64,000 nucleotides of DNA from Candidatus Poribacteria bacterium (GCA_965222225.1 CBDCTK010000002.1:1568001-1632000); one strand, 5' to 3'. Counted from the first letter of the stretch, positions 7,162-37,548 are shown. The notes: generated from the sequence alone by a model not told the origin. Translations and numbers: made by a program.

Positions 7162-8001
7162 ATGAAAGCAATGAAATCTGCCGTGAGTTTAGGACTTATC
7201 CTCTTTCTCTGCGTGTCGTTGAGTGGTGTTCTGTTGGTGTTGGACGCCTCGGCGAAAATCACGCCGAAAGAGACCGATGTCCCCACGGGATTCTACGCCA
7301 TTCAAAAAGGCGATACGCTATGGCACCTCGCCAAGAACTATCGGAATGATCCCCTATTGTGGCGGGAATTCGAGAAATATAACATCTTCACCAATCCGCA
7401 CCTAATCTACCCGAAGGAAAAACTCCAAGTGTCCGCGATGTGGGGGTTCCCCGGTGTCGCAATGCCCGAGCCGCCGGCAATGGTTGCCGAAATGGCAGCA
7501 AAGTCTGACTTGGATATGCTTAGAGCGAATTTTGAAGCCCATCTCATGAGCACGGCAGCCTCCCTTGAGGAAATCGGTGCCGAAGTTTCCGAAATTCACC
7601 AAGAGATTCACGGCATTCAGGAATCCATAACGGGACTGAAAAGCGCGATGGACATGGGCGGTGAGTCGCTCTCAATGGCGAACATGGAGAACTCGAAAGC
7701 CATCGCCGGTCTGAACGACTCCGTAATGGGTATCGGTAAGAAGTTCAAAGCGCACATCATGGAGATGGAGACGGCACACATGGAGCACGTCAAGCACGGC
7801 GAGCACATTGACGGTCACCTTGAGAATATTGAGAAGACGCTCGCCGGAATGAAGGCAGTGCAAGACGATACCCCCGGAAAGGTCGACAAGATTCTCACTC
7901 CCCCGGCGAAGAAAAAGTACAAAACACGTCCGATCGCCTTCCTGACAGCATTGGTTGGCGGAGCCGCGTGGGTAGCCGTGAACTCTCTCGGCGATCGCTA
8001 A
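7162..8001 (+). CDS. LysM peptidoglycan-binding protein with coiled coil and C-terminal membrane anchor
   Basis: RBS AAGGAG before ATG 7162; signal peptide; LysM motif YAIQKGDTLWHLA...NPHLIYP; heptad-rich middle; hydrophobic C-terminus. Confidence 0.8.
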   Translation: MKAMKSAVSLGLILFLCVSLSGVLLVLDASAKITPKETDVPTGFYAIQKGDTLWHLAKNYRNDPLLWREFEKYNIFTNPHLIYPKEKLQVSAMWGFPGVAMPEPPAMVAEMAAKSDLDMLRANFEAHLMSTAASLEEIGAEVSEIHQEIHGIQESITGLKSAMDMGGESLSMANMENSKAIAGLNDSVMGIGKKFKAHIMEMETAHMEHVKHGEHIDGHLENIEKTLAGMKAVQDDTPGKVDKILTPPAKKKYKTRPIAFLTALVGGAAWVAVNSLGDR

Positions 8002-8024
8002 TAACCGAACCGGCACAAACGACC

Positions 8025-8067
8025 AAAAAGCAGGGCAAATGCTCAACGGCATCCGCCCTGCTTTTTT
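8025..8067. terminator. Rho-independent (bidirectional-type) terminator
   Basis: AAAAAGCAGGGC...GCCCTGCTTTTTT. Confidence 0.8.
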
Positions 8068-8102
8068 CGTTTCAACATTCTATAGTCATCTATATTCATA
8101 TT

Positions 8103-8262
8103 GTAGTATGTAGGGTGCGATCAACCGAGCGATCAAGGAAGCGAATAGCGACCGCGATAGAGATCTTCTAGCGAAGGATCAAGTAGTATGTAGGGTGCGC
8201 ACTGCGCACCAGCCTTTGAAAGCCCTAGCGAAGGATCAAGCGATCAAGCGAGTGCGATAGAA
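8103..8262 (+). repeat. Cluster A of mini-hairpin repeats (GATCAA..GCGATAG) with a GTAG-REP
   Basis: Complete unit at 8131, several truncated GATCAA starts, REP at 8190-8210. Confidence 0.9.
8190..8210 (+). repeat. GTAG-type REP palindrome (other copies at 9188-9208, 13179-13199, 16464-16484)
   Basis: GTAG-GGTGCGCA-C-TGCGCACC; all four copies are followed by AGCCTTT. Confidence 0.8.
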
Positions 8263-8379
8263 GATTATGATAAAAATCCACGCCCTCCACCGCCCTTCTA
8301 ACACGCGTGCTATTGCGCACCTATCAAACGTGCACACATCACGTCTGTCACTGGCAACTAGACCCCAACCACTGCCATT

Positions 8380-8961
8380 ATGTCCCAACTTGAATACATA
8401 GTCGATCGCCTAACCGAACTTTCGGGCGACCGAATCAGCGAAATTGGTGAATCCATGAGGACCGGTTTGGGCTGGGTCGGCGCTAACACACTCGTCCTGC
8501 TCGCGGACAACGAGAAATGCCAATTTCACAGCGCCTCTGGTTGGCGGCGAGCATCGCGAATAATCGGCTTGGCACGCCAACTCGGAAAGCCCCTGCTCCT
8601 ATGGAATCTATCTTTCCACAACGACGCTCGGCGAACCCCAAACCTCGGTACGGAACGGGCGGCTCGAGACGCTCAACAGCACATCGTTCAATTTCCCTCT
8701 GCCATTGTTAGCGTTATTGAAGGCGCCCAAAAAAGAGACTTCTCAGCAGTCGAACTTGCTTTACCGGACGGTATCGTCTTTGTCGATGGCGCCGAAACGC
8801 TCTGGGGACACCTTACGATTTCACCGAGAACCATCGTTGCGAGCAGCGCTGAGGGAATTGCGTCGGGCATTTCAGGGCTGTTAGCCGAAATTGCATCAAT
8901 ACCCGCGAACGAATTAGCTTCTCAACGCAGGACGCGCCTCGCCTCAATCACCTTATCCTAG
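8380..8961 (+). CDS. Hypothetical protein resembling a degenerate acetyl-CoA carboxylase carboxyltransferase alpha (AccA)
   Basis: GWRRASRIIGLARQLGKPLLLW resembles AccA GYRKALRLMxxAERFxxPIITF; the C-terminal ELASQRRTRLASI resembles the AccA tail; the GEGGSGGA motif is absent. Confidence 0.45.
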   Translation: MSQLEYIVDRLTELSGDRISEIGESMRTGLGWVGANTLVLLADNEKCQFHSASGWRRASRIIGLARQLGKPLLLWNLSFHNDARRTPNLGTERAARDAQQHIVQFPSAIVSVIEGAQKRDFSAVELALPDGIVFVDGAETLWGHLTISPRTIVASSAEGIASGISGLLAEIASIPANELASQRRTRLASITLS

Positions 8962-9054
8962 GTAAGCGCCGCAATCAGCAAACAAACTACTCTTCTGTAC
9001 CTCTTGCAACCGTTGTTTTTCCCTTTAATTCCATGTCAATCTATGATAACCTTA

Positions 9055-9467
9055 AAACCTGTTTGAAAAGTACAGTTTGTAGTATGTAGGGTGCGATCAA
9101 CTGAGCGATCAAGGAAGCGAATAGCGACCGATCAAGCGAGTGAATAGCGAGGGCGATAGAAATCCCTTAACTCGACTCAGGAGATTTGTAGGGTGTGCAC
9201 TGCGCACCAGCCTTTAAAGCCCCACCGCGGGATCAAGGGAGCGAATAGCGACTGCGATAGATATCCCTTTTAAAGCCTGGCTGAAAAATACAGTTTGTAG
9301 GGTGCGATCAAAGGAATGAATAATGACTGCGATCAACCGACTGAATAGCGAGTGCGATAGAAGTCCGATAGAAGATCCCATAGGTATGAATCAGCCAACA
9401 ATGAAAACATGGAAAAACGTCCTCAAACTCTCAAAATGGCTTTGCCACCGATTATTCAAAGAGTCCC
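9055..9467. mobile_element. Non-autonomous MITE (IS5-like ends) carrying REP and mini-hairpin repeats (cluster B)
   Basis: TTA|AAACCTGTTTGAAAA ... TTATTCAAAGAGTCCC|TTA; subterminal sequence homologous to 10236-10828; a second left end near 9272. Confidence 0.65.
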
Positions 9468-9540
9468 TTAGATTTTAACGTAACGCGCATAATATATTCT
9501 GCCACGCACCATGTAACCCATTACCAACCCCTATTTCTCC

Positions 9541-10170
9541 ATGATTGAAAAAAACTTCCGGCCCTTCGTCAAGAAAATCCTACTTCCCATTGCGAAAGGC
9601 CTAACGGCAATTGGAATTACCGCGAATACGATCACACTCCTTGGTCTTTTAGTGAACGTCATCGCCGCATTCTTTTTGGCAACAGGACGATTCGTAGTGG
9701 CGGGAATCCTAATACTGTTCGGCGGGAGTTTCGATGCGATTGATGGCGTTGTTGCCCGCGTCAGCAACAAGGACGAATCCAACGCCTCCGGAGCACTGTT
9801 TGATTCCGTAATCGACCGCTATGCGGAAGCCGTTGTCTTTGTGGGCGCGATGATTTACTTCTATCACCTTTCCCACCTGCTAGGCGTGGTCTTGGTCTTC
9901 GCTTCCGTTATCGGATCTATTCTCGTAAGTTATGTCCGCGCCAGAGCCGAAAGCCTCCACGTCGAATGCAAAGTTGGTCTGATGCAGCGCCCGGAACGAA
10001 TCGTCCTCTTGGCGCTCGGCGTCCTCGCCCAAGGCATAATCATAAGATACTTCTCTTGGGAGTCCAACGGCATCATCCTCGTATGCGTATTTGCCATCCT
10101 TGCGTTAACGGCTCACATCACCGCGCTCCACCGCCTCGTCTTCTCTTATTCTCAGCTCAACAACCGATAA
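9541..10170 (+). CDS. CDP-alcohol phosphatidyltransferase (PgsA / PI-phosphate synthase-like)
   Basis: ANxIT; DAIDGVVAR...GALFDSVIDRYAE; SYVRARAE; RPER. Confidence 0.9.
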   Translation: MIEKNFRPFVKKILLPIAKGLTAIGITANTITLLGLLVNVIAAFFLATGRFVVAGILILFGGSFDAIDGVVARVSNKDESNASGALFDSVIDRYAEAVVFVGAMIYFYHLSHLLGVVLVFASVIGSILVSYVRARAESLHVECKVGLMQRPERIVLLALGVLAQGIIIRYFSWESNGIILVCVFAILALTAHITALHRLVFSYSQLNNR

Positions 10171-10235
10171 CCGTTGCAGGTTGGGAGCGGTGATCGTCAA
10201 ATCGCCGATTTCATCTCTTGCCGCCCTCCGCCTTA

Positions 10236-10828
10236 GAACCTGTTTGAAAAGTACAGTTTGTAGGATCAACCGACTGAATAGGGAGGGCGATCAAGCGAGT
10301 GAATAGCGAGTGCGATAGAGTTTTTCAGGTGTATAGCAACGCCGAATCGCACAAATCAAAGCACCAGAGTGCGATCAACCGACTGAATAGGGAGGGCGAT
10401 AGTCTTGTAGGATCAAGCGAGTGAATAGCGAGTGCGATAGTCTTGTAGGATCAACTGAGTGGATAACGAAGGCGATAGTCTTGTAGGATCAACTGAGTGG
10501 ATAACGAGGGCGATAGTCTTGTAGGATCAACCGACTGAATAGCGAAGGCGATAGTCTTGTAGGATCAACCGACTGAATAGGGAGGGCGATCAAGGGAGCG
10601 AATAGCGACTGCGATAGAGTTTTTCAGCTGTATAGCAACGCCGAATCGCACAAATCAAAGCCCCAGAGTGCGATCAAGCGAGTGGATAGCGAGTGCGATA
10701 GAAATCCTACCAGCCTTTGGAAATCCCATAGATATCCTACAGGTATGTAGCAGCCAAAAATGAAAACATGAAAACCCTTTTCTACAAATGCTCAAAAATA
10801 GCTTTACTATCTATTTTTCAACAGGCTC
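10236..10828. mobile_element. Non-autonomous MITE (IS5-like ends, TTA target duplication) filled with mini-hairpin repeats (cluster C)
   Basis: TTA|GAACCTGTTTGAAAA ... TTTTTCAACAGGCTC|TTA; no ORF; 10 repeat units inside. Confidence 0.75.
10373..10617 (+). repeat. Tandem array of the mini-hairpin repeat, 38-bp period
   Basis: GATCAA at 10373, 10411, 10449, 10487, 10525 and 10563, joined by the invariant linker TCTTGTAG. Confidence 0.95.
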
Positions 10829-10837
10829 TTACACAAA

Positions 10838-13042
10838 CTACCGGTTCCACAAGTATCCCAGCTTGAATACGATCACTCGGTTTTCCAGTCGCAGCATGTC
10901 CGCGTCCTTCCGCCACCCCTCATTATATCCGACAAATAAGTTGCTCTTTGGGCTGTACTCCCACCCAAACAGAAAACTCACCAAATAGTCTTCAGTAATC
11001 TGTAAATTAGCAAATGCAGTATGTTCGCGAGCCGCCTGCGTGAAGACACGAAAGAACACATCTCTAGTGAACAGATAAGTACCCCGGAAAGAACCTACGA
11101 GGAATCGTCCATCAATTTTCCGCTGTTCATCTAAGCTCTGGGCAAAACTTCCGCGGAGGTCAATCGTAAAGTTGCTTCGTGGTCGAACAGTAGCGGCAAG
11201 AGAGGCTACCCGCTGTAAACCAATGGTCTGTTGCGCGAAGTTGTAGTAATCCGATACGTTAAACCTTAACGATCCGGCAATAGGCTTGGAACGGTTTGTG
11301 TCAATATCCACCGCGAAATAGTTCGCGCCAAAGATGTTTGTCAACTCAATCTCCCTGCTGTGTTCGTACACTGCGCGAATGCGGTTCAAAAAAAACTCGG
11401 TAAACACCAGTCCGGTGGTTAATTTCACATCCGCTGCGACCAAATCCTCCGCAAAGTCCCGAGCGAGCCCTAGTGTAGGATGGCCGCGCTGCCATTGTAC
11501 GAAATAGTCGTTTGTATAAAGCGTCTGAGAAACCCCGCTCCCCGCACCGAAAAACGGACGCCAGCGATTGTCAGTGCGGGCGCTATACGTCGCCTCGGCA
11601 TCCAGCCGTTGCCATCCTCGATACGGCTCCTTCTCGAGGAATCCTGTTTCATTCGTTTCAAACCGAGGTTCGACACGCTCCAACTCCGCCTTGATATCCC
11701 ACAAATAATCACGCTTGGCAAAATTCAAAATGTAGGCGCTCCCGCCCGCGATTCCGTCTGAATGCAGGCTGCGCGCGACCTGTCCCGTCGCATGATAGGT
11801 CTTGCCAAGCGCCAGACTCATGTCTGCGCCGACGACCCGACTGTAGCCATCGCCGTGTTCCCGATTTGTGAAGAGCATCCCAACGTTGGAGCGCTTGAGC
11901 ACATCGCGCTTCACCCGCACTGCAGAATACCATGCTTCCTCCTTGGATCTTGACGGTTTCCCGGCTTCTAGTTCATCAAAACTCCCGGTTAGAGCCCCGA
12001 GTACACCAATCGAATAACGGCTAACCTTGCCCGTCATTTTTCCGCCCCACAGAATGTCGCCAAGACTTCCAATGCGACGGCTAAAAAACAGGTCGAGCGG
12101 TGTCTCAAAAAGGCTGTTGCCCTCAACGAAAAACGGACGCTTCTCCGGAAACCGCGTCGGAAATCGGGTGAGATTAATTTCCAGCTGATCCGCCTCTACC
12201 TGCGCGAAATCGGGGTTCAGCGTGAAGTTCGTCCTTAGCGCACCCGATACGCTGTACTGCACGTCAATCCCTGTGGCCAACTGTCCCGCGACAGGCTGCG
12301 CGTGAGTCTTCGACGAGCCGCCCAGAGCGTAAGGTATGATTTCAAACGATTTCCCGGTTTCAATCCCGGAAAGCCCGACGAGGTGACCAAGATCGGACAT
12401 GCGTGTCCTAGCCCCGGCTTGTGTCATCTGTTTCCAGATAGTAATTTCGGACTTCCTGCGATTCAACCGTTCAATGTCGAATCCCCACACCTGCTCATTC
12501 GTATCGGGAAACCGAAAGTTAGCGAACGGAATCTTAAATTCCGCTGTCCAACCGAGGTCGTCAATTTGCGACTCCACCCACCAGACACCGCGCCAACTTC
12601 CATCAATTTGGGCGTCATCGTAACGATAGTTGTCCTGTTGGATACCGCTCGGAGTTGTGGCAAACTTATAACCCGTACGGTGGTCATGGTGGGGATCGAT
12701 AAAGAACGAGATGAGATCGGAAACGTAAATGTTGCCTCGCCGCGTGATGCGACTCACAATCTTGGCAGGCTCGGAGTCGTAACACCGGAACGCGACGTAG
12801 AGGTTGTGACGATCGTAGGCGATGTAGGCGACGGTTTCATCGGTCGCGGATTCACCGCGTCTCGGCTCTAGCTGGATGAACCCGGAGATGGGAGTTGCCG
12901 CATTCCAAGCGAGGTCATCTAGGCGGCCATCTATTATCGGAGGCGGGGTGTCTTCTAAACGGTATGCTGTAATGAGGTGCGATCCCAAGCCGTCTGTATG
13001 GCCCCAAAGCAGAGACGGGAAAAGGAGCAAAGCAAGAATCAT
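10838..13042 (-). CDS. Carbohydrate-binding family 9-like / DUF5916 outer-membrane protein
   Basis: Signal peptide; PIIDGRLDDLAW, AYDRHNLYVAF, GWTAEFKIPF, TLNPDFAQVEAD, FPEKRPFF; beta-barrel-like C-terminus. Confidence 0.85.
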   Translation of the reverse strand: MILALLLFPSLLWGHTDGLGSHLITAYRLEDTPPPIIDGRLDDLAWNAATPISGFIQLEPRRGESATDETVAYIAYDRHNLYVAFRCYDSEPAKIVSRITRRGNIYVSDLISFFIDPHHDHRTGYKFATTPSGIQQDNYRYDDAQIDGSWRGVWWVESQIDDLGWTAEFKIPFANFRFPDTNEQVWGFDIERLNRRKSEITIWKQMTQAGARTRMSDLGHLVGLSGIETGKSFEIIPYALGGSSKTHAQPVAGQLATGIDVQYSVSGALRTNFTLNPDFAQVEADQLEINLTRFPTRFPEKRPFFVEGNSLFETPLDLFFSRRIGSLGDILWGGKMTGKVSRYSIGVLGALTGSFDELEAGKPSRSKEEAWYSAVRVKRDVLKRSNVGMLFTNREHGDGYSRVVGADMSLALGKTYHATGQVARSLHSDGIAGGSAYILNFAKRDYLWDIKAELERVEPRFETNETGFLEKEPYRGWQRLDAEATYSARTDNRWRPFFGAGSGVSQTLYTNDYFVQWQRGHPTLGLARDFAEDLVAADVKLTTGLVFTEFFLNRIRAVYEHSREIELTNIFGANYFAVDIDTNRSKPIAGSLRFNVSDYYNFAQQTIGLQRVASLAATVRPRSNFTIDLRGSFAQSLDEQRKIDGRFLVGSFRGTYLFTRDVFFRVFTQAAREHTAFANLQITEDYLVSFLFGWEYSPKSNLFVGYNEGWRKDADMLRLENRVIVFKLGYLWNR

Positions 13043-13056
13043 CGGTTACGGGTTAT

Positions 13057-13277
13057 TGTAGGCAGGATCAAGCGATCAAGCGAGTGGATAGCGAGTGCGA
13101 TAGAGATTCTTCCTCTAGTATGTAGTGTGCGATCAACTGAGCGATCAAGGAAGCGAATAGCGACTGCGATAGCTATATGTAGGGTGCGCACTGCGCACCA
13201 GCCTTTGGGGTTGAGTTCTTCTAGGGTGCGATCAACTGACCAAAAATCGCTTTGGCACCGATTATTCAAACAGGCTC
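13057..13277 (+). repeat. Cluster D: mini-hairpin repeats, a REP and the right end of the MITE
   Basis: Units at 13074 and 13143; REP 13179-13199; ATTATTCAAACAGGCTC|TAA. Confidence 0.85.
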
Positions 13278-13347
13278 TAAAGATTACTTCAAACGAAACA
13301 TCTTTCCTGTTTCCAGTTTTCTGAAGCACATGTGTTTCTCTTCCGCT

Positions 13348-14262
13348 TCATTTTTTCCGCGTTACCTCGGCTAACAAAGCCTTCATTCCGTAAAGGCGAT
13401 TCTCCGACTGCTCAAACACAATCGACCGCGGATCAGCAATCAAATCACCCGAAATCTCGTACCCCCGGTGCGCAGGCAAACAGTGCATCACCAATGTGTC
13501 GTGTCCTTCCATGATTGCCTTATTCAACTGATACGGCTGCATCAACTCAATCCGACGCTGTTTTTCGTCTTCAAATTCAGGATTCCCAAAGAACTCCATA
13601 TCCACCCAAGTATCAGTATAAACTACATCACTTTCAGCTATAGCTTCGCTGAGACAATCTGACAACCTGCACAACCCCGTCCGACATGCCTCTGCAAGCA
13701 GTGCTTCGTCAGCCGCCGCCGGATTTGTAATCGGCGCCACAATCGTAATCTCCATGCCAACCTTCATCCCCGCCGCAATAAGCGAGTTACACACATTGTT
13801 ATGGATCCCGACATAGGTGAGTTTCACTCCCTCTATCCGTCCTAGTCTTTCTTGGATGGTCATCAGATCCGCCAATATCTGGGTAGGGTGATACCGATCG
13901 CAACATCCGTTGATTATTGGAACCGATGAGACTTCCGCTGCCCGGATTACGTCCGCATGATTTAGTAGCCGCGCTAGAATGACATCAACATACGCTGATA
14001 ATACGCGAATTTCATCATGGAAGTCCGTCAAGACAAAATTTGTCACTCCCCAATCCAAGAAGAAGGCGTGCCCCCCTAACTGCGTCATACCCACCTCGCC
14101 GGCACAGCGAGTTCGAGTCGATGTCTTCTGAAATAACAGCGCGAGGCTTCGGCCGCGCATCAGGTCTTCAAACTTCTCCGGGAAACGCTTAATTTCGATG
14201 CTTTTCTCAACAACATCAAGGATATTTTCTCGCGTCCAGTCCTTGAGTGAAATCAAGTGCAT
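13348..14262 (-). CDS. argF: Ornithine carbamoyltransferase
   Basis: KTSTRT, HPTQ, YTDTW and HCLP motifs. Confidence 0.9.
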   Translation of the reverse strand: MHLISLKDWTRENILDVVEKSIEIKRFPEKFEDLMRGRSLALLFQKTSTRTRCAGEVGMTQLGGHAFFLDWGVTNFVLTDFHDEIRVLSAYVDVILARLLNHADVIRAAEVSSVPIINGCCDRYHPTQILADLMTIQERLGRIEGVKLTYVGIHNNVCNSLIAAGMKVGMEITIVAPITNPAAADEALLAEACRTGLCRLSDCLSEAIAESDVVYTDTWVDMEFFGNPEFEDEKQRRIELMQPYQLNKAIMEGHDTLVMHCLPAHRGYEISGDLIADPRSIVFEQSENRLYGMKALLAEVTRKK

Positions 14263-14623
14263 AACTCTTCTCCAAAGATAAACAATGAAAAATGTCGAAA
14301 AGCCTATTTAATCAGTCTACAATCCATCTTCGCCGTTCTTTTTCTTTCTCAAATTTCTAGGCTCAATACTTCGTTACGATTAGTCCGATTTCCACATCTG
14401 TTAATGTATTCTGCCCCAAAATAGATCAATGTTGGCAAACAGATGCAGCCGCTGTCCGCCAACATTGAGTTCAATACACGTATCACTGTCTTAGTTCATA
14501 GTCCAACTACCGACCGCTGGTCGATGTTTGGTCAGTTGCGTAGTCCTCATTGTATCATGTTCCCGACAAAATGCCAAACAAATACGAGCCTTGGGCAAAT
14601 AAACCTCGTGTTCCTGCCGCTGT

Positions 14624-15430
14624 TTATCCACTCCGTTTCAGTCTTCCCGTTCGTTTCGCATACTGTTCCCCCAAATGGAAAATCCAAAAACCGAGCGGGA
14701 TTGTTATGATGCCAATTATCAGCAGCAAAATGAGGTTGCCCGCTTGGTCGGCAATCGACGAATTATCAAGCATTGCTGCCCGAATGGACCTAAGCGCATA
14801 CGTCGCAGGGGAAATTCGAGATAACGGTTGAATCCATTCCGGCAATACCTCAATCTCGTAGTAGACGCCGGAAATCAGCAAAACAACGGATTGGAGGATT
14901 CCCGTTGCTGCCTGACCCTTTTCGGGCGAAAGCAGTGGAAAAATCGCCGCCATCAAGCCGATCCCGATAAAGGAAACGCTCGCGATGAGCACAGTCACTG
15001 CCAGCGTCAACCAATTGGCGTGACTTAGATCGATGTGCTCTCTGAAAAAGAGTGGCATCACCGCCAACACAATCCCTGTCCGCAACAGACCATACAGAAT
15101 AGCAAAGAGACACGAGCCGACAAGATGTGTGATGCGGTAAATAGGTGCCATAAACGTGTACTCAATCGTGCCCTCCCAGCGTTCCCATGTTATGGCATCG
15201 CTTACCTCTCTCATCATAATTGAAAGGAATCCCCAAATCAATGCGCCGATCACCAAGTAAAGCACGTCTTTTGCGGAGCCGCGCCCGACCATGATTAACC
15301 CAATCGTTAATGCATTGACGATTGAATAGGTGAAAAAGAGAATCTCCCAGTTGAGATACCGCTTGAGAAGATTGAAATTGCGTTCAATGAAAGCATAGGA
15401 AACCACAGTTTCACGTTTGATATCGAACAT
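14624..15430 (-). CDS. ABC-2 type exporter permease
   Basis: Multiple TM helices; ERWEGTIEY; SGVYY..LPEWIQ. Confidence 0.9.
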   Translation of the reverse strand: MFDIKRETVVSYAFIERNFNLLKRYLNWEILFFTYSIVNALTIGLIMVGRGSAKDVLYLVIGALIWGFLSIMMREVSDAITWERWEGTIEYTFMAPIYRITHLVGSCLFAILYGLLRTGIVLAVMPLFFREHIDLSHANWLTLAVTVLIASVSFIGIGLMAAIFPLLSPEKGQAATGILQSVVLLISGVYYEIEVLPEWIQPLSRISPATYALRSIRAAMLDNSSIADQAGNLILLLIIGIITIPLGFWIFHLGEQYAKRTGRLKRSG

Positions 15431-15433
15431 TGT

Positions 15434-16285
15434 CTACTCCACATCCTCCGCCAAATCTTTTCCGGTAAGCTCGATAAACACATCCTCAAGCGTAACCTGT
15501 TTGTCTTGCATGCTAATCTGGGCTTTGAGTTCCTTCGCCGTACCCGTGGCGATAAACTTGCCCTTGTCAATAATTGCAATGTGATCGCATAGGGATTCGG
15601 CTTCGTCCATATCGTGCGTAGTCAATAACACAACAACATCGTGCTCTTCCCGAATCTCATTAATCAACCGCTGTACATCGCGTTTCGATTTTGGATCTAA
15701 GCCTGTGGTGGGCTCATCAAGCAGCAGCAGAATCGGCGAGGTAAGGAGTGCGCGAGCGATAGCAATCTTTTGTTGCATGCCTCGTGAAAGATCTTCCATC
15801 GACTCATTCATCCGAGTAGAATCAAAGCCAAGCCGAACCAGAATCTTTTCAGCCTTGCCCCGAGCTTCGCCTGCCGAGAGATCGTAAAGCCGCGCGGCAT
15901 ACAGTAAGTTCTCTGTCGAAGACAGCCGCTTGAAAAACGAGGCCTCCACAGAAACCCGGTTAATCATCTGTCGAAACTTGAAGCTGTCGTTGACTACATC
16001 GTATCCAAGAAAGCCAATCTGCCCGCTATCAGGAAGTAGCAGTGTAGAAATCAATCGAATCAGAGTCGATTTTCCAGATCCATTGGCGCCGAGGATACCG
16101 TAAATTTCTCCCATTCCAACCTGAAACGAAACATTGTCAACTGCTTTGATGACCTCCTTCTCCCGTCTTAACTGATGACGGATTTTCTGGGAGAACGTCA
16201 ATTTACTATCTTGTGGGTACGGTTTCTTCCGGTAGAAATGTTTAACGAGTCGGTCAACTACCAAACCGTTTGATGTAATTATCAC
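15434..16285 (-). CDS. ABC transporter ATP-binding protein
   Basis: GANGSGKS, LSRGMQQ, LLLLDEPT, TTH. Confidence 0.95.
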   Translation of the reverse strand: MIITSNGLVVDRLVKHFYRKKPYPQDSKLTFSQKIRHQLRREKEVIKAVDNVSFQVGMGEIYGILGANGSGKSTLIRLISTLLLPDSGQIGFLGYDVVNDSFKFRQMINRVSVEASFFKRLSSTENLLYAARLYDLSAGEARGKAEKILVRLGFDSTRMNESMEDLSRGMQQKIAIARALLTSPILLLLDEPTTGLDPKSKRDVQRLINEIREEHDVVVLLTTHDMDEAESLCDHIAIIDKGKFIATGTAKELKAQISMQDKQVTLEDVFIELTGKDLAEDVE

Positions 16286-16368
16286 AATATTCCTTTAGCC
16301 CGTCCCTTCATATTTGAGATATGCAGGTTTCCTTTCCGACTAACCACTAATCTCGACTTTGTACATTT

Positions 16369-16597
16369 GTAGGATCAACTGAGTGGATAACGAAGGCGAT
16401 AGTCTTGTAGGATCAAGTGAGTGAATAGCGAGTGCGATAGAGATCCCCCGCCCACCATTTCTTGTAGGGTGCACACTGCGCACCAGCCTTTGAGAGTGCC
16501 AGCGGCGATCAAGCGAGCGAATAGCGACACTGCGATAGAGATCCCCTGCGATCAAATGAGTGAATAGCGAACGCGATAGAACTCCCATAGAAATCCC
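16369..16597 (+). repeat. Cluster E: mini-hairpin repeats with a REP
   Basis: Units at 16373, 16411, 16507 and 16550; REP 16464-16484. Confidence 0.9.
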
Positions 16598-16970
16598 AAA
16601 AGGTTGGAGAGTGTTAGAAACCCCCGGCGACTTTTTCCGATACATCGGGTTGGGTGAAACACAAGTTCTAGTCTATAAGGAAGACTTTTTCAATGGTCAA
16701 CCAAAAAGACCGGATAGTTAAAATCTCACCGGCTTTTCTGGAACGCTTGATTGACACCGTCTGTTATACTGCTTAAATGTACAAAGTCGAGACAATCGTT
16801 AGTTCACTGTCATTGTTCTTTGTTAATCAGTATTGCAATCCCTCTCGCGTTACGCATCATGCAGTATTTCTTTTTCACTTGACAGATAAGCAACCAAGTA
16901 TGTATAATTGCGCAGAATCGCAGTCATAGTGCGAACCAAAGCATATTGACAAATACTAAAGGAGGATAAG

Positions 16971-17255
16971 ATGGCTGACAAATTGTCGAAGCAAGATGTC
17001 ATTAGCAGTGTTGCTGATGCAACAGGTTTGACTAAGAAAGAAGCAGGCGACGCAGTTGACGCCGTCGTCAACACTATCAAGAATGCCCTCGCTGAAGGAA
17101 ACTCGGTGGGGCTAATTGGGTTTGGCTCTTTTGAGGTAAAGACCAGAGCGGCTCGCACAGGACGTAACCCGCAGACAGGCGCAGAACTTGATATTCCTGA
17201 AAAAAAAGTCCCATCCTTCAAGGCTGGTAAAGAGCTAAAAGACGCTGTCGCGTGA
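16971..17255 (+). CDS. hup: HU family DNA-binding protein
   Basis: GFGSF...[12 protein letters not shown]...[14 protein letters not shown]; RBS AAGGAGG. Confidence 0.97.
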
Positions 17256-17790
17256 TGTCCGTTTGACAGTTACCGGATTTTGGACGCCTTGATTTGCTTG
17301 CGAGCATTTCCCGCGCGCATGTTAAGGCTTCCAATATCTTGAGTGGCTTGGCTCCAAGGTGTAAACCTCGATCTTCATCAAATTCATCAATGTCCTAAAA
17401 CTATCACGCAAAAGCGGTAATGTAGACGTGATTCAATTATCCCATCATTATACTTCCATTCAATCTTTCATTTCAAGCGAATCCTTCGACGATAGAGGTT
17501 CTCTGTTTCCCAAAAGCGGGTGAAATTCTGGTTCGATAGATCGTAAACGCTGCCACTGTCAGGCGTTTTCTTGATGTGCGGCAAATGATAATTACTTGGA
17601 ATCGGGAAGGTGCGGATGTCTGGAGCGTGAAACAAACCTACATGTCGCCGATTTCTGGTAGCTTTCCGTTGAAACGTCCCGACTGCCGCCGTATTTAGAA
17701 TGCCTCGGCGCGTACAGTGGGTGTGGTTCAGGGTTCGTCGGTTGTCGCTGATACGACAACCGAATCTGACTCCATCACAGGAGGTCATTA

Positions 17791-36040: not shown

Positions 36041-36076
36041 GGGTATCTCTACCGCACTCGCTATCCGCTCGCTTGC
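36041..36076 (-). repeat. Single mini-hairpin repeat inserted near the IS3 orfB 3' end
   Basis: Minus strand CAA GC GA GC GGATA GC GA GT GCGGTAGAGATACCC. Confidence 0.85.
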
Positions 36077-36344: not shown

Positions 36345-36379
36345 GATCAAGTGACCGAATAGCGAGCGCGATAGAGATC
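36345..36379 (+). repeat. Single mini-hairpin repeat inserted in IS3 orfB
   Basis: GATCAA GT GA CC GAATA GC GA GC GCGATAGAGATC. Confidence 0.9.
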
Positions 36380-37548
36380 CGCTTGATTGACTAAGGGCTC
36401 GTTCCAGAGCCGACAGACAAAAGAATACGTCAAGTGAGTTGGAAAGTTCCCATGACAACACGTAACGGGAAAACCAATCCATTACTGCTACCAGATAAAC
36501 GTAACCATTGCTCAAGTGAATATAGGTTATATCAGTTGCCCAGACGTGATTCGGTCTGTTGATACTTAATTCCGTCAGCAGATAAGGGTACATTTTCGAC
36601 GGTTTGCCCATACCGGAGGTCTTGGGCTTGGGATAGATGGCAGCTAATCCCATCTTTCGCATTAATCTTGCTACCCGTTTCGGATTGACGACATATCCTT
36701 GGGAACGAAGCCATTTCGTTAATTTAGGCAGCCCGTAGAACGGTGTCTTGGTGTACTGCTCATCTAACAGACTCATATAGAGCAGGTTTTGTGGCTACTC
36801 TGTTGCAGGACGATAATAGTATGAGGCTCTGGACAAGCCTAAAAGCTCGCATTGTCTCACAACCGACAATGAACGGCACTCCTGTTCAACAAGCTGCCGT
36901 TTGTGTTCAACGGAGGCGTTGAGGTTTTTTTTGAAGCCAGTCCAGTTCTACCTTCAACTGATCAATCTGGCGATAGAGATCTGCCACTAACTCGTCATTG
37001 TCAGAGACCATTTTTGAGCGCCCGTTGGTAAACAGTTGAGGTAATTCCTCAAGAACCTGTTTTTTTCATAGGCTGACTTGCGCTGGATTAACACCGTATT
37101 CACTGGCAATCTGAGCGGTAGTTTGCTGATTCTTAATGGCTTCAAGAGCCACTTGTGCTTTGAATCGGCCATCGTGCTGTTTTCTGTGGGACATGGTGGA
37201 GAAACTCCTTTCTTTTTCTTGGCGTTTCCGAGCCATATTTTCGCCCAGATGATGACCATTTTGCCAGTCGGAATGATCTCTTATTCAACTGTCTAGTTTT
37301 TGGGGGTAATTGCACCTTGCATGCGGAGCAGCGAGTTTGAGTTTAAAACGCCAGCGCATGATGTCCGACAATTAAGCTGCTTCAGCACATTCAAAGGTTC
37401 CTAGCGGAGCAATCCCTTATACGGATTCTTTGCTCCGCGAAGATAATCTTCAATTTGTAATCAAAGATTGCTGTCACAAGCTAGGTTGGTAAGGTCCTTT
37501 ATGGTTTCCGATTGAAATACTCAGCCATTTTTAGTAGGCTTATATTCC

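Follow-up and report, generated by a model that had tools for sequence, protein, structure and literature searches.

A structure-selected mini-hairpin repeat in Candidatus Poribacteria, a 35-36-nt insertion unit probably handled as single-stranded DNA

The stretch of DNA analysed here (the window, 64,000 nucleotides, GCA_965222225.1 CBDCTK010000002.1:1568001-1632000, positions counted from its first letter) belongs to a Candidatus Poribacteria metagenome-assembled genome (MAG), termed G000, which consists of two contigs with 50% GC. The window lies on the 5.6-Mb contig. Its main feature is a mini-hairpin repeat, called the mini in this text, whose head follows the pattern GATCAA-NN-GA-NN-GRATA-NN-GA-NN-GCGATAG. 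With up to two mismatches, 21 matches were found, all on the + strand (20 in 8131-16579 and one at 36345), while 100 dinucleotide-preserving shuffles gave none. A search with the 28-nt head and up to three mismatches gave 22 copies, and the added one is a degenerate copy at 36051 on the - strand. Five intergenic spacers between open reading frames (ORFs) of both strands house all window minis except that at 36345. Partial minis were also seen, namely truncated heads and one copy with a 2-nt indel (16507-16538). A first-pass annotation had described about 24 copies of a repeat of about 30 bp. The repeat is real and its head was confirmed; the count was slightly high, the indel copy and the truncated heads making the difference, and the full mobile unit is longer, with head and tail together spanning 35-36 nt. 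Some heads form arrays, either at a 25-nt period with a shared GCGAT or at a 38-nt period through the linker TCTTGTAG. Array neighbours differ in their stems, and mispaired mosaics occur occasionally; the copies at 9331 and 10525 are mispaired, just as had been described. The window also carries four GTAG-headed repetitive extragenic palindromes (REPs), at 8190-8214, 9188-9212, 13179-13203 and 16464-16488.

The strict 25-nt core of the mini occurs in 559 copies in G000 (315 on the + strand and 244 on the - strand) with 174 distinct variants, and 1,092 copies are counted when three scaffold substitutions are allowed. It had been claimed that the four variable dinucleotides covary as base pairs, N1N2 with N7N8 and N3N4 with N5N6, if the variable positions are numbered from the 5' end. 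The claim held, and the signal is much clearer in the whole genome than in the window alone. Watson-Crick or G.T pairs are found at 2164 of the 2236 pair positions of the strict copies, 496 of which are fully paired, and at 628 of 696 positions when each distinct variant is counted once. For the window, the earlier count of 85 of 92 became 77 of 84 in the copies with up to two mismatches. Every one of the four pairs draws on three or four pair types in large numbers. The mutual information is 0.75 bits for N1:N8, 0.94 for N2:N7, 1.14 for N3:N6 and 0.41 for N4:N5. For any other two among the eight N positions and the loop purine, same-arm neighbours included, it is at most 0.21, and the sole other value above this level (0.41) belongs to two adjacent tail columns. 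Because high mutual information among the stem and loop columns is confined to the predicted pairs, shared descent cannot explain the pairing. The two stems assort almost independently, and therefore inheritance of a few founder sequences cannot make the pattern. An alignment of 150 copies picked by scaffold only (16 from the window and 134 from other Poribacteria genomes) was then compared with its shuffled and slid versions. Paired cells amounted to 97.7% against 79.5% in the shuffles, none of 500 shuffles reached the observed value, and 254 cells had changed on both sides against 46 in the shuffles. The covariation score was 0.58, compared with at most 0.119 when the partners were slid.

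The strand on which the hairpin forms can be read from the mismatched pairs. G.T cells numbered 239 and A.C cells 20, and thus only the written strand can fold. T is almost absent at N1, N3 and N7, so T is avoided directly 3' of both GA steps. A is almost absent at N2, N6 and N8; N4 is a pyrimidine and N5 is a purine. Of 192 combinations of common pair types, 75 occur in G000 alone. The ATC/GAT foot and the G.A steps are invariant, and therefore covariation neither supports nor contradicts them. An outer GGATC/GATCC stem, formed by the 5' flank with the tail, was rejected, as its mutual information was at most 0.05. The strand specificity proposed at first sight applies to folding and to local orientation; genome-wide, both strands carry copies (602 on the + strand and 487 on the - strand). 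No Rfam covariance model matched either strand of 7500-17500 at E ≤ 1, and the family is in this respect not a described one, as had been supposed.

In order to delimit the mobile unit, candidate intervals were cut from each copy and the joined flanks (15 + 15 nt) were sought elsewhere in G000. An exact 30-mer empty site exists for 67 of the 1092 copies, and the lengths most often removed there were 36 nt (17 copies) and 35 nt (14 copies). Tandem duplication accounts for the classes of 38 nt and 41 nt. The sequence of the unit reads [A]TCAA...GCGATAG, followed by the tail AGATCC(C) or NAAATCCC. In the 31 empty-site cases of 35-36 nt, there is no target duplication, and the boundaries are mostly unshiftable. 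A G precedes ATCAA in about 90% of copies; the target ends in a 3' G, often in GCG. The GTAG REP was hit at TGCG^CACC by four different stem variants. Two further GTAG-headed hairpins were entered at their start or inside the loop, a perfect palindrome was entered at the apex, and one more hairpin where its loop ends. Minis themselves served as targets as well, with 12 insertions of 36 nt in the GRATA loop of other copies. In one RNA-library contig, a 35-nt insert stands at 8206^8207, and this contig may derive from a paralogous REP. Turnover between relatives is also evident. A syntenic stretch of 4.8 kb holds 15 minis in G000. The eight congeners compared have 0-8 there, differently placed and with different stems, and in two of them the spacers are short and free of minis. 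The congeners are about 70-87% identical in matching pieces of the stretch, and their spacers are remodelled. Contigs of four sequencing runs, all of them assembled contigs, end at the repeats. The mini is selected for its structure, folds on one strand and inserts as a unit of 35-36 nt, and it is probably handled as single-stranded DNA.

Two loci outside the window show where minis can land. Minis reach their highest density in G000 (30 copies in 10 kb) where a CRISPR array adjoins cas1 (L249 8500-10800, G000 C2:~2705500-2707800); the array has a 37-nt repeat and a period of about 73 nt. In several of its repeats, the hairpin is interrupted by a block that has a + mini at one end and a - mini at the other, and one such block, a 240-nt unit, is present four times. 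An LRR/GHL15/dockerin protein (L204, G000 C2:3736587-3738572) has an in-frame insert of 11 residues (about 543-553) encoded by a sense mini, which is missing from three paralogs and seven congener homologs. The TAR codon in the mini loop terminates at least ten other ORFs. The features of the window and the Y1 proteins discussed below are collected in Table 1. A further module of about 80-100 nt (ATGAAAACATG...GGCTTTGCCACCGATTATTCAAA...) recurs by gene ends at 9390-9470, 10740-10830 and 13240-13290, and in congeners too.

Table 1. Minis and associated elements in the window, and places of Y1 proteins
Position or place	Strand	Feature
8131..8160	+	Mini head GG/GC/GC/CC with one scaffold mismatch; truncated head 8116-8130 just before
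8190..8214	+	Intact GTAG-type REP (second family); elsewhere the empty site for a mini insertion
8242..8258	+	Short head without loop and 3' arm; 11-nt internal deletion between direct repeats
9130..9159	+	Mini head with tail AGAAATCC
9231..9260	+	Mini head
9306..9360	+	Two heads (9306, 9331) in 25-nt tandem register with common GCGAT; the first preceded by the left half of a GTAG REP
10264..10318	+	Pair of heads, tandem at 25 nt
10373..10617	+	Seven heads in a row, six of them at a 38-nt period via TCTTGTAG, final pair at 25 nt; every unit a distinct stem variant, 10525 a mispaired mosaic
10672..10707	+	Head and tail immediately 3' of the hairpin module AGCCCCAGAG(T)GC
13074..13103	+	Mini head
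13143..13172	+	Mini head; GTAG REP 13179-13203 shortly downstream
16373..16446	+	Two heads spaced 38 nt, the second with tail AGAGATCC
16507..16544	+	Copy with 2-nt insertion in the 3' arm, and tail
16550..16596	+	Head and tail AGAACTCCC, then orphan second tail ATAGAAATCCC (nesting trace)
36345..36380	+	Isolated head and tail; degenerate - strand copy at 36051
		P0001, Y1 protein of 165 aa from one of the five PF01797 places of G000; DHIH / WQ / YIKNQEAHH, the subclass 1.2 signature (Quentin et al.)
G000, PF01797 places		Two RAYT-like proteins
G000, PF01797 place		RAYT pseudogene
G000, L131, PF01797 place		C-terminal RAYT fragment bracketed by inverted minis
G000, 22 kb upstream of the window, by protein query		Clade-B RAYT fragment

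The distribution of the mini is narrow. When 176 Poribacteria genomes were scanned with the 28-nt pattern, high counts appeared only in 14 genomes of two genera. These are the window's genus (g1; 289-765 copies in 10 of 10 genomes) and a second genus from another family (g4; 114-128 copies in 4 of 4 genomes). The head is identical in both, and the g4 tail differs, being mostly AGTCTT. A motif scan of public species genomes gave only Candidatus Poribacteria MAGs among the matches listed (at least 80 loci). A cyanobacterial origin was rejected in view of the matches listed and of HIP1, which is not enriched on the 5.6-Mb contig (117 copies). Low counts were seen in single genomes of genera g6 and g9; in the two with the highest counts, G066 and G146, most blasted motif loci are 86-99.7% identical to G000. 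The mini-bearing contigs in these MAGs (C72, C83 and C116 of G066; C61 and C362 of G146) are, judging from this identity, probably mis-binned contamination. A blastn search against plasmids, cyanobacterial ones included, gave chance hits only (E = 7). A literature search, with supplements outside its scope, returned no description of such repeats in Poribacteria.

Minis in G000 are oriented by a replication-linked strand asymmetry and not by transcription. Most of them are intergenic (1015 of 1089, in 660 of 4110 spacers of all four kinds), and between co-directional genes 359 are sense and 319 antisense. Their orientation correlates with the local GC skew (Spearman -0.79 in 250-kb bins). After masking of the elements, the folding strand is the negative-skew strand in about 70% of copies and in 351 of 481 clusters (p 1.6e-24); the mini's own G-richness would produce the reverse sign. 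The GTAG REPs of G000 have the same skew bias (87 of 117), and genes favour the positive-skew strand (1722 of 3057). We read the orientation as the mark of a replication-linked process at the DNA level in which REPs take part too, and which does not simply repeat the IS608 rule. Inverted-pair mini composites also occur, as in the CRISPR array. Along the 5.6-Mb contig, the GC skew flips its sign about eight times and the repeat orientation flips along with it, which suggests many inversions or assembly joins at repeats.

The GTAG REPs are a family of their own, with about 140 exact copies in G000 and a compensatory CG/GG stem variant. Minis located within 60 nt of GTAG-REP halves are co-oriented with them (162:7 and 87:8). 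GTAG stands within 14 nt upstream of 237 of 1089 minis, compared with 2.6% of random 14-mers. As an obligatory carrier, this REP was rejected: g4 genomes with 114-128 minis have 0-1 copies of it, and therefore the GTAG REP is not the mini carrier. In g1 congeners (L184, L185), inverted GTAG REPs stand on both sides of the genes of a diverged RAYT clade, which is the likely partner of this REP.

It had been supposed that the mini is the substrate of an enzyme encoded outside the window, and indeed the window encodes no Y1 HUH gene. Six Y1 places were found in G000, five by PF01797 and the sixth by protein query, all elsewhere on the same contig. The locus of the clade-B RAYT fragment has 17 minis in 10 kb, which is the 99.5th percentile; the window's own cluster has 20. 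Three Y1 lineages (P0001-type, DHLH/YIHYNP-type and DHIH/YCYxNP-type) were profiled across 41 genomes, and the expectation of a HUH/RAYT gene co-occurring with the motif failed there, as none of the three tracks the minis. At single loci, an association is seen. A DHLH/YIHYNP RAYT gene (L176 in genome G015) is bracketed by inverted minis with 34-nt arms of 91% complementarity, and it lies inside the densest cluster among the matches listed (8 of at least 100 copies within 9 kb). In G027, five minis lie within 1 kb of the orthologous gene and are joined at GCG^ATCAA to the GTAG-headed motif of that clade. The P0001-type gene has minis within 300 bp at 6 of 6 g1 loci examined, always in one geometry; among genes in general, 896 of 4111 (22%) have a mini that near. 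As the established cognate, this gene was set aside: the mini next to the gene stands behind a hairpin that belongs to the gene's flank (AGCCCCAGCGGGG) and is mini-free in g3 and g6, and the g4 loci are without minis. It is kept as one candidate. Subclass-1.2-type Y1 genes (L160, L164 and L165 in g6 and g3; L127 in G000) are flanked by an inverted hairpin repeat AGCCCCAGAGGGGCGAT... / CGCTCCAGCGGAGCGAT... in a REPtron-like manner, while, according to passages of PMC6006769, terminal secondary structures are generally missing in this subclass. An enzyme beside the densest mini cluster was sought by an ORF scan, which gave Cas1, a weak Cas5-like match and a dehydrogenase along with the CRISPR array.

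The mini is of a known kind, that of REP- and SDR-class miniature repeats (SDR, small dispersed repeat). Its unusual properties are the G.A-punctuated two-step stem, the near-saturated stem diversity, the preference for hairpins as targets and the confinement to two genera. REP, BIME and REPIN sequences with RAYT genes form the "REPtrons" of E. coli, Pseudomonas and Stenotrophomonas, as parts of PMC6006769 and PMC3116915 describe. Like REPs, minis are short, high-copy and mainly intergenic hairpins whose stems change in a compensatory way. One genome holds more than one family and more than one Y1 gene, and minis form mosaic clusters with other modules. At some loci they concentrate round RAYT genes, inverted minis bracketing one such gene, while other loci of these clades carry other hairpins. 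Their skew-linked orientation matches that of the GTAG REPs of G000 itself. On the other hand, the canonical REP has a conserved 5' GT[AG]G tetranucleotide at the hairpin foot (stated in sections of PMC6006769), whereas such a foot is near only 22% of minis. The REP is a long GC-rich palindrome, whereas the mini stem has 2+2 canonical pairs broken by conserved G.A and is weak alone. Further, mini neighbours are mostly co-oriented singlets rather than the inverted doublets of REPINs, the stem pairs are near combinatorial saturation, and no RAYT lineage co-occurs with minis across the 41 genomes.

The nearest analogue in design would be the cyanobacterial SDRs, likened here by description and not by sequence. 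SDR1-8 of Nostocaceae (Elhai et al. 2008) are said to be units of 21-27 nt whose common fold is kept by compensatory changes. They reportedly nest in their own copies, and an RNA intermediate is said to have been proposed. By description, the mini is likewise very small, with a 25-nt head period, all four of its pairs covary, and it inserts in its own copies, as in the 12 loop insertions. According to portions of PMC4390886 and PMC5861425, SDR5 enters HIP1 between bases three and four, i.e. after GCG; the insertion of the mini is similarly precise and very often follows GCG, in REPs and in CRISPR repeats. In contrast, the mini resides in another phylum, and HIP1 is not enriched in G000. Portions of PMC5861425 report that SDRs are confined to Nostocaceae. 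The orientation of minis argues for DNA, unlike the RNA intermediate reportedly proposed for SDRs. With the IS200/IS605 elements (IS608 and ISDra2, as outlined in parts of PMC6006769), the mini shares the probable recognition of a hairpin on one strand, the coupling to replication asymmetry, and insertion without target duplication. A short sequence 5' of the insertion point may be a further parallel, the mini targets having only a 3' G or GCG in common. It differs from them by having one hairpin instead of two different subterminal ones, by encoding no transposase, by a degenerate target (G at -1 in about 90%) and by an orientation bias of opposite sign to that given for IS200 in parts of PMC3971601.

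Taken together, the observations give a somewhat better than even probability that the mini is a REP/BIME-class single-stranded DNA module moved by a Y1 HUH enzyme of the RAYT type. It would be a non-autonomous miniature DNA element. Its head of about 29 nt (ATCAA-NN-GA-NN-GRATA-NN-GA-NN-GCGATAG) has an invariant scaffold, and its short tail varies between lineages. One strand folds with two 2-bp Watson-Crick/G.T steps alternating with G.A purine-purine steps. A protein would bind this folded strand and recognise its scaffold and shape, whichever bases make up the four stem pairs. If the protein is indifferent to pair identity, any paired combination is competent for transposition and the family drifts to combinatorial saturation. 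The unit lands discretely, 3' of a G and without target duplication, in or beside other hairpins. The protein itself may be a Y1 HUH endonuclease/transposase of the RAYT/IS200 kind that acts in trans on DNA that is single-stranded during replication. That the mini is the substrate of a HUH enzyme is plausible in view of the clean insertions, the skew-tied orientation and the clustering at RAYT loci. We regard the HUH assignment as likely and a RAYT-type Y1 protein as the best guess for the mover.

Several observations weigh against this proposal. The 5' GT[AG]G foot is missing in 852 of 1089 minis, and the invariant 5' sequence is GATCAA. All three Y1 lineages are present in genera without the motif (g3, g6 and g9), and in two of the four g4 genomes no gene of the P0001 or DHLH/YIHYNP type was detected with a strong E-value. 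The same RAYT clades in g6 and in G003 are flanked by other inverted hairpins and not by minis. Y1 genes sit in repeat-rich DNA generally, so proximity to them is weak evidence. Neighbouring minis within 500 bp are co-oriented in 296 of 389 cases (76%) and do not form inverted doublets. The replication bias is opposite in sign to that reported for IS200 in parts of PMC3971601; for IS200/IS605-type elements, a bias of the active strand to the lagging-strand template (the leading-strand sequence) would be expected. Target classes differ by one base in the left boundary, and the length of one coding insertion seems to be 33 nt. The gene context was derived from crude ORF-based calls, and the skew analysis from the single genome G000. 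The hairpin is not strong by itself, either. Of the fold implied in the first-pass annotation, the two 2-bp steps are upheld by their covariation, but the folding models find the structure weak alone. Nearest-neighbour RNA folding gave the mini hairpin as the minimum in two of six tests (-4.5 and -6.3 kcal/mol), and none of four sense-strand DNA folds returned the hairpin that covariation supports. The DNA fold energies were -1 to -3.6 kcal/mol for the four sense strands and -0.2 to -1.6 kcal/mol for the antisense strands. These models suggest that the hairpin is marginal and may form on a protein.

Alternatively, the mover of this DNA would not be a Y1 protein but an unrecognised nuclease, recombinase or integrase, common to g1 and g4, that pastes the G.A-punctuated hairpin into extruded hairpins. 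The three profiled Y1 lineages fail to track the motif, and the target is set by the hairpin context and a 3' G more than by a fixed tetranucleotide. The scaffold is the same in two genera of different families and is not high-copy in 29 others, which suggests a dedicated factor; the opposite replication bias to that given for IS200 in parts of PMC3971601 would fit as well. However, no candidate appeared among the ORFs beside the densest cluster, the only ORFs scanned, and involvement of the REP machinery is the simplest account of the co-orientation with GTAG REPs, the common skew bias and the clusters at RAYT loci. We consider such a mover rather unlikely. Going further, the mini could be a distinct class of ultra-small (35-36 nt) mobile DNA and the first SDR-like one outside cyanobacteria. 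It would have a dedicated enzyme that reads the G.A-punctuated hairpin, would be common to two sponge-symbiont genera, perhaps by transfer, and would insert by structure into extruded hairpins, its near-saturated stem diversity being kept up by selection, e.g. for escape from recombination among copies, and not by drift. This we hold to be unlikely; if true, minis can disable CRISPR arrays and decorate proteins.

An RNA route is distinctly improbable. In this scheme, transcripts would fold into the tandem-G.A hairpin and be copied back to DNA, or act as a protein-binding or processing signal. The G.T tolerance and the tandem G.A steps fit RNA as well as DNA, and the design, very small, self-nested and with compensatory stems, is SDR-like. 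The region is present in RNA-library contigs, but these contigs do not show transcription; the sequencing runs are assembled contigs and mute on strand or level. Against the route, the orientation ignores the flanking genes and follows the GC skew, minis occupy all four intergenic kinds, Rfam gave no match in the region searched, and no link to a reverse transcriptase turned up, with no search aimed at one. The least credence is given to minis as host-selected chromosomal sites, bound e.g. by a protein of the nucleoid, of replication or of repair, that multiply through recombination and slippage instead of transposition. The strict scaffold across two genera and the orientation tied to replication asymmetry are consistent with such sites, and the 25-nt and 38-nt arrays and neighbour mosaics do show slippage and recombination. 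However, exact 35-36-nt insertions at unrelated targets, nesting in own loops, invasion of a CRISPR array and a coding insertion are marks of selfish insertion. Syntenic spacers of some congeners lack minis altogether, and with high copy numbers in only 14 of 176 Poribacteria genomes, most members of the phylum do without them.

Minis have a practical consequence for annotation. They lengthen the spacers between genes, interrupt short-read assemblies, disrupt CRISPR repeats and can extend a protein by 11 residues. If the assignment to a REP/BIME-class module moved by a Y1 enzyme holds, the movement of such tiny elements would be directly testable with a few candidate Y1 proteins and an oligonucleotide of 29 nt. 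The family would also be a clean natural experiment on how an enzyme reads single-stranded DNA, with 21 scaffold positions fixed and four pairs free as long as they are paired. The mini would then be among the smallest discrete insertion units known in bacteria. Finally, the SDR-type phenomenon, with reports so far from Nostocaceae only, would extend to an uncultured sponge-symbiont phylum with complete long-read genomes.

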